From positions 1 through 64,000 of the forward strand of contig CAXHJY010000193.1 in assembly GCA_964016885.1 (NCBI GenBank): 64,000 bases of DNA. The letters run 5' to 3'. Below the pieces are notes generated by a model that was not told where the DNA came from, searched no databases, and saw only the letters and a program-made list of their open reading frames with translations. The stretch is from Eledone cirrhosa (Eukaryota). Position numbers and translations under genes: made by a program. Shown here piece after piece: positions 7,858 through 54,913 of this stretch (its first letter is position 1; each line of letters begins with the position of its first letter).

Positions 7858-7860
<3 letters not shown>
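6013..7860 (+). mobile_element. 5'-truncated, internally deleted CR1-group LINE (family 1), inserted in (TA/TATG)n
   Basis: RT ORF, short 3' UTR and ttcaaagtta-type tail running into microsatellite; both ends abut (TATG)n. Confidence 0.9.
6018..7772 (+). CDS. LINE ORF2 remnant (endonuclease C-terminus fused to reverse transcriptase), 584 aa open frame
   Basis: [12 protein letters not shown] (EN end), [84 protein letters not shown]. Probably not translated on its own because it is 5'-truncated. Confidence 0.85.
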
Positions 7861-12096
<4,236 letters not shown>

Positions 12097-45506: not shown

Positions 45507-45578
45507 GTATATATATATATATATAATTAATAAACACACATATATATATCCTTATCCTTCTATTTTTCCCTTTCCTAG

Positions 45579-45709
45579 ATGGTTGAGAAGTATCTCAGTA
45601 ATTCTATTCTTGAATAAACAAGATTTATTGGCTGAGAAAGTGAAAGCTGGAAAGTCAAAAATCGAAACATATTTTGCTGATTTTGATCGTTACATAACCC
45701 CTGTAGATG
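45579..45709 (+). CDS. GNAS: G-protein alpha-s subunit, coding exon (vertebrate exon 11 equivalent; G4 NKxD)
   Basis: tttcctag acceptor; [43 protein letters not shown]; gtaagc donor at 45710; 131 nt. Confidence 0.97.
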
Positions 45710-46435
45710 GTAAGCAATCTATTATTTTACATAACCCCTGTAGATGGTAAGCAATCTATTATTTTACATAACCCCTGTAGATGGTAAGCAATCTATTATT
45801 TTACATAACCCCTGTAGATGGTAAGCAATCTATTATTTTACATAACCCCTGTAGATGGTAAGCAATCTATTATTTTACATAACCCCTGTAGATGGTAAGC
45901 AATCTATTATTTTACATAACCCCTGTAGATGGTAAGCAATCTATTATTTTACATAACCCCTGTAGATGGTAAGCAATCTATTATTTTACATAACCCCTGT
46001 AGATGGTAAGCAATCTATTATTTTACATAACCCCTGTAGATGGTAAGCAATCTATTATTTTACATAACCCCTGTAGATGGTAAGCAATCTATTATTTTAC
46101 ATAACCCCTGTAGATGGTAAGCAATCTATTATTTTACATAACCCCTTGTAGATGGTAAGCAATCTATTATTTTACATAACCCCTGTAGATGGTAAGCAAT
46201 CTATTATTTTACATAACCCCTGTAGATGGTAAGCAATCTATTATTTTACATAACCCCTGTAGATGGTAAGCAATCTATTATTTTACATAACCCCTGTAGA
46301 TGGTAAGCAATCTATTATTTTACATAACCCCTGTAGATGGTAAGCAATCTATTATTTTACATAACCCCTGTAGATGGTAAGCAATCTATTATTTTACATA
46401 ACCCCTGTAGATGGTAAGCAATCTATTATTTTACA
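45690..46435 (+). repeat. 37-bp tandem array, 20 copies, spanning the exon/intron boundary
   Basis: Unit ttacataacccctgtagatg|gtaagcaatctattatt. All copies are identical except one extra T in copy 13 (~46146). 20x37+1+5 = 746 bp. Confidence 0.97.
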
Positions 46436-46675: not shown

Positions 46676-47580
46676 ACCTTAGTACCCACGACCTTCTCAC
46701 TACCCACGACCTTCTCACTACCCACGACCTTCTCACTACCCACGACCTTCTCACTACCCACAACCTTCTCACTACCCACAACCTTCTCACTACCCACGAC
46801 CTTCTCAATACCCCCGATCTTCTCACTACCCACGACTTTCTCAATACCCCCGATCTTCTCACTACCCACAACCTTCTCACTACCCACAACCTTCTCACTA
46901 CCCACGACCTTCTCACTACCCACGACCTTCTCATTACCCACAACCTTCTCACTACCCACGACCTTCTCACTACCCACAACCTTCTCACTACCCACAACCT
47001 TCTCACTACCCACGACCTTCTCACTACCCACAACCTTCTCAATACCCCCGATCTTCTCACTACCCACAACCTTCTCATTACCCACAACCTTCTCACTACC
47101 CACGACCTTCTCACTACCCACGACCTTCTCACTACCCACAACCTTCTCACTACCCACAACCTTCTCACTACCCACGGCCTTCTCACTACCCACGGCCTTC
47201 TCACTACCCACAACCTTCTCACTACCCACGACCTTCTCAATACCCCCGATCTTCTCACTATCCACGACCTTCTCACTACCCACAACCTTCTCATTACCCA
47301 CAACCTTCTCAATACCCACAACCTTCTCACTACCCACGACCTTCTCACTACCCACGACCTTCTCACTACCCACAACCTTCTCACTACCCACAACCTTCTC
47401 ACTACCCACGACCTTCTCAATACCCCCGATCTTCTCACTACCCACGACCTTCTCACTACCCACAACCTTCTCATTACCCACAACCTTCTCATTACCCACA
47501 ACCTTCTCATTACCCACAACCTTCTCACTACCCACGACCTTCTCAATACCCCCGATCTTGTCACTATACACGACCTTCAC
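46676..47580. repeat. 18-bp minisatellite (~50 copies) with degenerate flanks to ~46630 and ~47790
   Basis: Unit cccac(g/a)accttctcacta, with variant cccccgatcttctcacta. Confidence 0.95.
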
Positions 47581-47918
47581 ACTGCCCATGGCCTCATTAC
47601 AAAGCCATGACCTTCAGTGCTCACAACCTTTGCAGTAGCTACGACCTTCATAGTACGTGTGACCTTTACAGTACATGTGACCTTCTCAGTGTCCACAATC
47701 TTTGCTGTAACCATGACATTTGCTGTTCCCACAACTTTTACATTGTCCTTGACCTTTTCAGTAGCCATGACCTTTGCGGTGCCGACAACTTTGTATTGCT
47801 CACAATCTCCTTCAATTTGACTTGGATATTACTGAAAATTAGTCTGATTGATTATTGCTGTGTATATCTTATTTAGAATAGGTATACCGTATTCCTGTGT
47901 GATGTAAGAGGTGATTAA

Positions 47919-48437: not shown

Positions 48438-48505
48438 CCCACACTGAGCCTGGTGATGACCCAGAAGTTGTCCGAGCGAAGTACTTCATTCGTGATGAAT
48501 TTTTA
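48438..48505 (+). CDS. GNAS: G-protein alpha-s subunit, coding exon (vertebrate exon 12 equivalent)
   Basis: tttgtag acceptor; (A)HTEPGDDPEVVRAKYFIRDEFL; gtgagt donor; 68 nt, phase 1 to phase 0. Confidence 0.97.
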
Positions 48506-49398: not shown

Positions 49399-49620
<222 letters not shown>

Positions 49621-50019: not shown

Positions 50020-50057
<38 letters not shown>

Positions 50058-50066
50058 TATACATAC

Positions 50067-50097
<31 letters not shown>

Positions 50098-50153
50098 CAT
50101 ATATAAATATATATGTATATACATATATATATATATATATACATATATAAATA

Positions 50154-50185
<32 letters not shown>

Positions 50186-50254
50186 CATACATATATATAT
50201 ATGTATACATATATATATATATATATACATATATAAATATATATGTATATATAT

Positions 50255-50311
<57 letters not shown>

Positions 50312-50820
50312 AATATATATATATATACATATATAAATATATATATATATACATATATAAATATATATATATATACATATATAAATATATATATATATAC
50401 ATATATAAATATATATATATACATATATAAATATATATATATATACTTATATAAATATATATATATACTTATATAAATATATATATATACTTATATAAAT
50501 ATATATATATATATACATATATAAATATATATATATATACATATATAAATATATATATATACATATATAAATATATATATATACATATATAAATATATAT
50601 ATATACATATATAAATATATATATATACATATATAAATATATATATATACATATATAAATATATATATATACATATATAAATATATATATATACATATAT
50701 AAATATATATATATACATATATAAATATATATATATACATATATATATATATACATATATAAATATATATATATACATATATAAATATATATATATACAT
50801 ATATAAATATATATATATAC

Positions 50821-50875
<55 letters not shown>

Positions 50876-51096
50876 CATATATAAATATATATACATATAT
50901 AAATATATATACATATATAAATATATATGCATATATACATATATATATGCACATATATATATGCATATATGTATATGTACATATATTCATAAATATGCAT
51001 ATATATATGTATATATATATATTATATATATATTATATATATATATATATTATATATATATTATGTATATATATATATTATATATATATAATATAT

Positions 51097-51130
<34 letters not shown>

Positions 51131-51141
51131 ATATATATATA

Positions 51142-51187
<46 letters not shown>

Positions 51188-52451
51188 ATATATTAATATA
51201 TATATATATATATATTATAATATATATTATTATTATAATATATTATATATTATATATATATATTATAATATATATTATATATTATATATATATATTATAT
51301 ATATTATTATATATATATATTATATATATATATATTATATATTATATACATATATATATTATATATATATTATTATAATATATATTATATATTATAATAT
51401 ATATTATATATTATATATATATATTATAATATATATTATATATTATATATATATATTATATATATATATTTTATATATATATATTATATATATATATTTA
51501 TATATTATATACATATATATATTATATATATTATATATTATATATATATGTATATATATATATATTATATATATATATATTATATATATATATTATATAC
51601 ATATATATATTATATATATATTATATACATATATATATTATATATATATATTATATATATATTATATACATATATATATTATATATATATATATTTATAT
51701 ATATATATAATATATATATATATTATATACATATATATATTATATACATATATATATTATTACATATATATATTATATACATATATATATTATATACATA
51801 TATATATTATATATATATATATTATATATATATTATATACATATATATATTATATACATATATATATTATATACATATATATATATTATATACATATATA
51901 TATATTATATACATATATATATTATATACATATATTATATATATATATATATTATATACATATATATATTATATACATATATATATTATATACATATATA
52001 TATTATATACATATATATATTATATACATATATATATTATATATATATATATATATTATATATACATATATATATTATATACATATATATATTATATACA
52101 TATATATATTATATATATAATTATATACATATATATATATACATATATATATTATATACATACATATATATATTATATAATATATTATATACATATATAT
52201 ATTATATACATATATTAATATTATATATATATATATAAACATATATATATTATATATATATTATATACATACATATATATATTATATATATATTATATAC
52301 ATATATATATACATATATATATTATATATATATTATATATATATTATATACATATATATATACATATATATATTATATATATATTATATACATACATATA
52401 TATATATTATATATATATTATATACATATATACATATACATATACATATAC

Positions 52452-52501
<50 letters not shown>

Positions 52502-52512
52502 CATACATACAT
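50020..52512. repeat. 2.5-kb (TA)n-derived array
   Basis: Directly visible; sub-units catatataaatatatatata and tattatatacatata. Confidence 0.95.
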
Positions 52513-54146: not shown

Positions 54147-54578
54147 ACCTATTCTAAACCAGACACACACAGGGATATGGTGTACTGATTCTAAACCAGA
54201 TACATACAGGGTTATGGTATACCTATTCTAAACCAGATATATACATAGATACAGTGTACCTATTCTAAACCAGATATATACAGGGGTATCCTGTACCTAT
54301 TCTAAACCAGATATATACAGGGGTATCCTGTACCTATTCGAAACCAGATACACACAGGGATATGGTATACCTATTCTAAACCAGATACACACAGGGATAT
54401 GGTATACCTATTCTAAACCAGATACACACAGGGATATGGTATACCTATTCTAAACCAGATATATACATAGATACGGTGTACCTATTCTAAACCAGATATA
54501 TACAGGGGTATCCTGTACCTATTCTAAACCAGATACACACAGGGATATGGTATACCTATTCTAAACTAGATACACACA
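54147..54578. repeat. 37-bp minisatellite, ~12 diverged copies
   Basis: Unit acctattctaaaccagatacacacagggatatggtat and variants. Confidence 0.9.
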
Positions 54579-54913
54579 GCAAAAAAAAAATTTGATAGCC
54601 TCAATATAGAGTCAATAGATTCAATATTTCTAGGAAATTCAACAGTAAGGTATTGCCACCATAGTGTTTGCCAGCTGTTAGAAAACATTAATAATCTAAT
54701 ATATTGTAACATATCTAGACGAAGGGGTTAGTGAATGACAGATGAAATGACTTTGTGGTCTATAATTATCTCTTTGTTTTGTGTTCAAATCTCAGTGGGA
54801 TCTGTAAAATACTTCACCATTTAAATTACTAGGGGTGGGGCTAGGGTTGATTGAATCTCCCTCTCTCCCTCTCTCTTCTAAAATTTGAGGCTTGTGTAAT
54901 CAATCATCATTGT

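Follow-up and report, generated by a model that had tools for sequence, protein, structure and literature searches.

In the cephalopod Eledone cirrhosa, an exon/intron border of the Gs-alpha gene is multiplied into 20 tandem 37-bp units (positions 45690 to 46435, plus strand), each with an intact splice donor, and the major transcript is spliced at the first of them (donor 1). We are fairly confident that this is a locally born minisatellite in which donor 1 is spliced and the other 19 donors are silent passengers, with Gs-alpha dose unaffected and a small leak possible. Positions refer to the window, the 64,000-nt stretch of DNA that we analyzed, which opens a 69,892-bp contig (C220) that is unplaced in the assembly.

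The repeated exon/intron border and its gene

The identity of the gene as Gs-alpha (GNAS class), proposed in the first-pass annotation of this DNA, is upheld by best similarity to Gs-alpha proteins, by PF00503, and by the C-terminal sequence. Six exons in the window encode residues 162 to 377. The exon at the array (131 nt, 45579 to 45709, plus strand) corresponds to residues ∼263 to 307 of the Octopus vulgaris protein (93% identity by tblastn), and the 43 residues that it encodes match the O. vulgaris G(s) alpha entry (PF00503) at 95% identity. It ends at donor 1 (45709/45710) and begins behind a pyrimidine-rich acceptor (45552 to 45578, plus strand), with 17 of 18 pyrimidines at −20 to −3 (0.94), which would be the likely exon-definition partner of donor 1. 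The next exon (68 nt, 48438 to 48505, plus strand), placed by tblastn and by a spliced contig, provides the acceptor for donor 1. The last coding exon (49474 to 49620, plus strand; 98% identity) carries the TCAVDT motif, the C-terminal helix, and the stop. Across these three exons, the reading frame is intact and identity to O. vulgaris is 93 to 100%.

The gene is split in the assembly. Residues 1 to 127 lie on the minus strand of C17, near 34.27 to 34.31 Mb and ∼9 kb from a scaffold gap of 200 N (C17:34,261,896-34,262,095), and C220 likely belongs in this gap. Multikilobase AT-rich microsatellite tracts (window positions 7858 to 12092, 16843 to 19824, 50051 to 52509, and 60429 to 62816) are the likely reason that the contig stayed unplaced. 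An exon for residues ∼128 to 161 was not found in the window or in 96 kb of genomic sequence. There was no second Gs-alpha 3′ half among 20 genome-search matches, so the locus in the window is likely the working gene; we also rejected an extra Gs-alpha copy that would relax selection, since the genome searches found no second copy.

Each unit of the array combines the last 20 nt of the exon with the first 17 nt of the intron (45690 to 45709 and 45710 to 45726 in the first unit). The donor GATG/GTAAGC is intact in 20 of 20 units, with first intron bases at 45710, 45747, and so on to 46414, and 19 of the 20 units are identical; the exception, unit 13 (46134 to 46171), is 38 bp long with one additional T. 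TRF described the array with a period of 37, 20.1 copies, 99% matches, and a score of 1483. The word TTACA stands at both ends, at 45690 to 45694 within the exon (codons CGT TAC ATA; plus strand) and at 46431 to 46435 (plus strand), after which unique intron sequence follows; the feature is thus 20 units of 37 bp plus a terminal TTACA. Direct count and TRF agree here with the first-pass annotation, which had described 20 tandem donor-bearing units, 19 of them identical, and TTACA microhomology at both array ends.

The first unit straddles the authentic exon/intron border, and the junction 45709/48438 is present in a spliced contig. A 31-nt core of the unit had 19 matches in the 3.0-Gb assembly, all inside the array, and the backwards control had 0; a DNA search with the unit gave matches on the array's contig only. 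We therefore ruled out a dispersed satellite or mobile origin of the unit, as no other locus in the assembly matches. The same intron holds an older second minisatellite (18 bp, 50 copies, 90% matches; window positions 46683 to 47588) 250 bp downstream, and an unrelated 37-bp minisatellite with 11.7 copies (87% matches; window positions 54147 to 54579) lies downstream of the gene.

To establish the array in reads, we examined 4 of 24 public runs over positions 45552 to 45763 (the exon and the first two units), donors 3 to 20 and the 3′ flank being covered only indirectly. Run X2, from organism A, is DNA-like because the intron is present in it (the library type is unrecorded). It yielded a 67-nt repeat-loop contig at a depth of 155, its length (37 + 30) being what 31-mers give when a 37-bp loop collapses. 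A second contig, of 307 nt at a depth of 8.7, follows the unit through TTACA and then continues into the 3′ flanking sequence present in the window. The resulting loop/flank depth ratio of 17.8, which comes from one DNA-like run with low flank depth, perhaps the assembly's own sample, and is silent on other individuals, compares with predictions of 18.5 for the assembled allele, 9.3 for ten copies, and 0.3 for one copy. This ratio indicates that the array is genuine and has about its assembled length; provided that the flank depth is diploid, this length is the mean of the two alleles. The presence of the array in reads, a check named in the first-pass annotation, was thereby confirmed.

Donor choice and its consequences

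Donor 1 (ATG/GTAAGC, 45707 to 45715, plus strand) agrees with the donor consensus CAG/GTAAGT at 6 of 9 positions and was seen in use: a loose contig end after 45709 is the start of the exon at 48438. Donors 2 to 20 (45744 to 46419, plus strand) have the same sequence, and no use of them was seen. The evidence comes from run X1 (organism A, likely the same species), which is RNA-like because it is spliced. It contained one 1,348-nt contig (depth, 21) with 0 differences over 45576 to 45709, which joins the 131-nt exon upstream to the previous exon and downstream, through donor 1, to 48438. Coverage past 45711 fell to a depth of 0 in all bins, with no intron, and no contig in X1 ran past donor 1 (1/1 spliced contigs of organism A uses donor 1). 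X1 and X2 are different samples of one study; the array was seen in X2, and X1 is without an intron contig. The X1 evidence is one assembled contig from one run, and contigs drop rare forms and nonsense-mediated decay (NMD) depletes its targets, so it speaks for the major form. The major transcript is spliced at donor 1, and for this form the first of two alternatives offered by the first-pass annotation, that donor 1 is selected, holds.

In organism B, a relative, 9 of 9 junction-crossing raw RNA reads (6 in X23 and 3 in X24) were at the homologous donor, and there were no intronic reads among 11 (X23) and 9 (X24) reads. As the intron of organism B is unseen, these reads are silent on donor competition.

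Preference for the intron-proximal site among equal donors is a rule drawn from other constructs. The first-pass annotation had carried it over to this array, where it found no support; the human F7 gene uses its most upstream donor (excerpts of PMC1557585). The available parts of PMC10078293 and PMC6280755 contain nothing specific on the proximal-site rule or on reiterated donors. RNA structure was rejected as the selector of donor 1: a weak hairpin whose loop contains the donor can form in each unit (z-scores, −0.33 and −0.68), and all 20 donors have low predicted accessibility (0.001 to 0.005), with donor 20 equal to donor 1.

The downstream donors would enlarge the exon from 131 nt to 168 to 835 nt, and by frame computation, only donor 1 yields the full protein; each of donors 2 to 20 leads to a premature stop. 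Donor 2 shifts the frame, and translation would then end within the next exon, at a stop 58 nt ahead of the last junction. All 18 of donors 3 to 20 lead to an in-frame stop, the TAA at 45748 to 45750 (plus strand; translation of the extended exons), 101 to 731 nt upstream of the last junction, and in their products the last exon, which supplies TCAVDT and the C-terminal helix, is missing. Our recomputation reproduced the frame arithmetic of the first-pass annotation for donor 2 and for donors 3 to 20. If the 50- to 55-nt rule applies in molluscs, the products of donors 2 to 20 all qualify as putative NMD targets, though that of donor 2 only just.

Position, unlike structure, sets the donors apart, as donor 1 is the first to be transcribed and lies closest to the strong acceptor at 45578. 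This acceptor may pair across the 131-nt exon with the donor that is transcribed first, a mechanism modeled on F7; this upstream-first rule was established in mammalian cells, not in a mollusc. A leak of likely a few percent to donor 2 (compare ABCA7, IFI6, and CBS below) would give a premature stop and likely NMD, and the array would persist because it is cheap, not through selection.

Origin of the array and minisatellite background

All 20 units share exon letters that differ from organism B at 45690, 45694, 45699, and 45708, and two of these four letters make TTACA where organism B has CTACG. The final A of TTACA comes from ATA, the codon for an Ile in the window that is Val and Ala in O. 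vulgaris and O. bimaculoides. Because the units agree with the exon in the window, the array either arose after these letters did or was homogenized later.

The simplest reading, drawn from the sequence, is that TTACA-mediated slippage followed by recent amplification gave rise to the array. Lineage-specific substitutions would have created the exonic TTACA 37 bp ahead of a second TTACA in the intron; the first duplicate could then have come from slippage or unequal repair involving the two words, and further slippage or unequal exchange may recently have amplified it. The array is most likely a young, locally born, and neutral minisatellite.

Differences from organism B number 5 in the last 23 exon bases (45687 to 45709) and 0 listed in the first 108 (P ∼ 1e-4 by a post hoc Fisher test), and another 3 lie at the start of the next exon, within its first 28 bases (48438 to 48465); this exon has no array. 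A variable loop, and not the repeat, may account for the clustering.

We sampled the genome for minisatellites with a period of 15 to 100, at least 5 copies, and at least 85% matches. Forty stretches totaling 399,600 bases contained 17, of which 2 had at least 95% identity and at least 10 copies; 89,800 bases within and alongside the gene's 5′ half contained 5, and the window contained 3. Since minisatellites are this dense, a few donor-spanning arrays are expected by chance: a rough expectation, assuming 100,000 to 200,000 donors, is 15 to 260, or 2 to 26 if a tenth are locally born. Ladders of three GGTAAG motifs gave 55,529 overlapping matches against 67,057 in the backwards control and are thus unenriched. 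This pattern is unusable for finding other donor-spanning arrays, and the first 100 matches all came from a few arrays on C1. Separately, 48-bp minisatellites with a similar-looking consensus were seen on C17 and C2 (L015:1385-2505, L016:5780-6627, L024:327-1291, and L042:8841-9180); judged by eye, they likely form a dispersed family.

Alternative readings and known systems

If array length varied and altered the dose of Gs-alpha, the array would gain greater importance. The second alternative in the first-pass annotation was of this kind: a copy-number rheostat in which the extra donors bind U1 or are spliced according to their number, so that longer alleles send more transcripts to NMD. In favor of this reading, each of the 19 extra donors is intact and would lead to a stop 58 to 731 nt upstream of the last junction. 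Human IFI6 and CBS use donor 2 or 3 (excerpts of PMC1557585), and the length of the ABCA7 variable-number tandem repeat (VNTR) is inversely correlated with expression (excerpts of PMC5954066). NMD would also conceal the products from contig evidence. Against this reading, no contig goes beyond donor 1, and the near-perfect identity of the units suggests youth rather than selection on donors. In F7 minigenes with 1 to 6 or 8 to 12 monomers, donor choice was unchanged (excerpts of PMC1557585); this series resembles the minigene experiment proposed in the first-pass annotation and argues against its intron-proximal premise. One-unit retention in ABCA7 is likewise independent of length (excerpts of PMC5954066). 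By these comparisons, a U1-decoy or NMD rheostat seems unlikely. We also think it improbable, taken more broadly, that the array is length-polymorphic and tunes Gs-alpha either through NMD of transcripts from donors 2 to 20 or through a 3-nt microexon that adds an Asp (see below); such tuning would amount to a heritable dial on cAMP signaling and a molluscan exception to the upstream-first rule.

An indirect effect, in which the array serves as a protein-binding platform and alters inclusion of the 68-nt or 131-nt exon by length or tissue, appears very unlikely. It has a precedent only, in that skipping of ABCA7 exon 19 increases with VNTR length (excerpts of PMC5954066), whereas the X1 contig contains the 131-nt exon joined to both neighbors, skipping either exon (131 or 68 nt) causes a frameshift, and the flanking acceptors are pyrimidine-rich (0.89 to 0.94).

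The microexon itself would arise if donor 1 were joined to an internal AG at least 71 nt away, ATG were included, and that unit's own donor served as the exit. Each unit reads CCCCTGTAG and then ATG/GTAAGC (TGTAG/ATG/GTAAGC), with an AG three bases ahead of the donor, and the reading frame would then run on to the usual stop with a single Asp added (TPVD-D-AH). This would be the array's sole outcome giving a full-length protein variant. The X1 junction is without an extra ATG, however, and the AG follows a weak tract, with 0.67 pyrimidines compared with 0.89 to 0.94 at the three true acceptors nearby. The extra Asp is in 0 of 5 cephalopod Gs-alpha proteins, though those species may lack the array. 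On balance, we judge this route highly improbable. The chance that the array was mis-expanded in assembly, for which one could point to the unplaced contig, to the splitting of the gene between it and C17 beside a scaffold gap, and to the near-identity of the units, is close to negligible, given an X2 depth ratio of 17.8, where the assembled allele should give 18.5 and a single copy 0.3.

A neutral minisatellite with donor 1 in use extends to a cephalopod the pattern in which the first of many identical donors wins. Since every wrong donor destroys the protein of this core signaling gene, the locus is a clean natural test of splice choice in a long-intron invertebrate, and the array is likely to mislead gene annotation and the mapping of short reads. 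A limited search for literature on intron minisatellites and splicing in octopus returned only a general review of human repeats, which is not proof of absence.

Several human arrays place donors in a comparable position. In the available excerpts of PMC1557585, the minisatellites of IFI6 (6-16) intron 2 and CBS intron 13 and the intron arrays of LMNB2 and PDGF repeat the donor 10 to 25 times after the authentic one; two additional donors are used in IFI6 and CBS, whereas LMNB2 and PDGF use the first only. The 25-bp VNTR in ABCA7 intron 18 is like the Gs-alpha array in having a donor inside the repeat unit (De Roeck et al. 2018, excerpts of PMC5954066). Its second-unit donor frameshifts, with NMD predicted; the paper lists two frameshifting isoforms, the first at 14% and the second at 2%, and array length changes next-exon skipping and expression. 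The ABCA7 unit, however, begins at GT in an array that varies from ∼0.3 to 9.7 kb (excerpts of PMC5954066), whereas the Gs-alpha unit spans the border.

The closest counterpart is the VNTR in F7 intron 7 (IVS7), in which splicing takes place only at the intact donor that lies most upstream (Borensztajn et al. 2006, excerpts of PMC1557585). When that donor is knocked out, the next is activated, and stronger downstream donors, up to a consensus value of 91, fail to compete (same excerpts). The two arrays share a 37-bp unit, a first unit over the exon/intron border, intact repeated donors, and splicing at the most upstream of these, here in the major form. They differ in that the F7 unit has 4 exon and 33 intron nt in 5 to 9 polymorphic copies, while the unit in this mollusc has 20 and 17 nt in 20 copies; we take their origins to be independent, claim no sequence relationship, and regard the shared 37 as chance. 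The Gs-alpha array is thus most likely an instance of the F7-type border minisatellite, a class in print since at least 2006.
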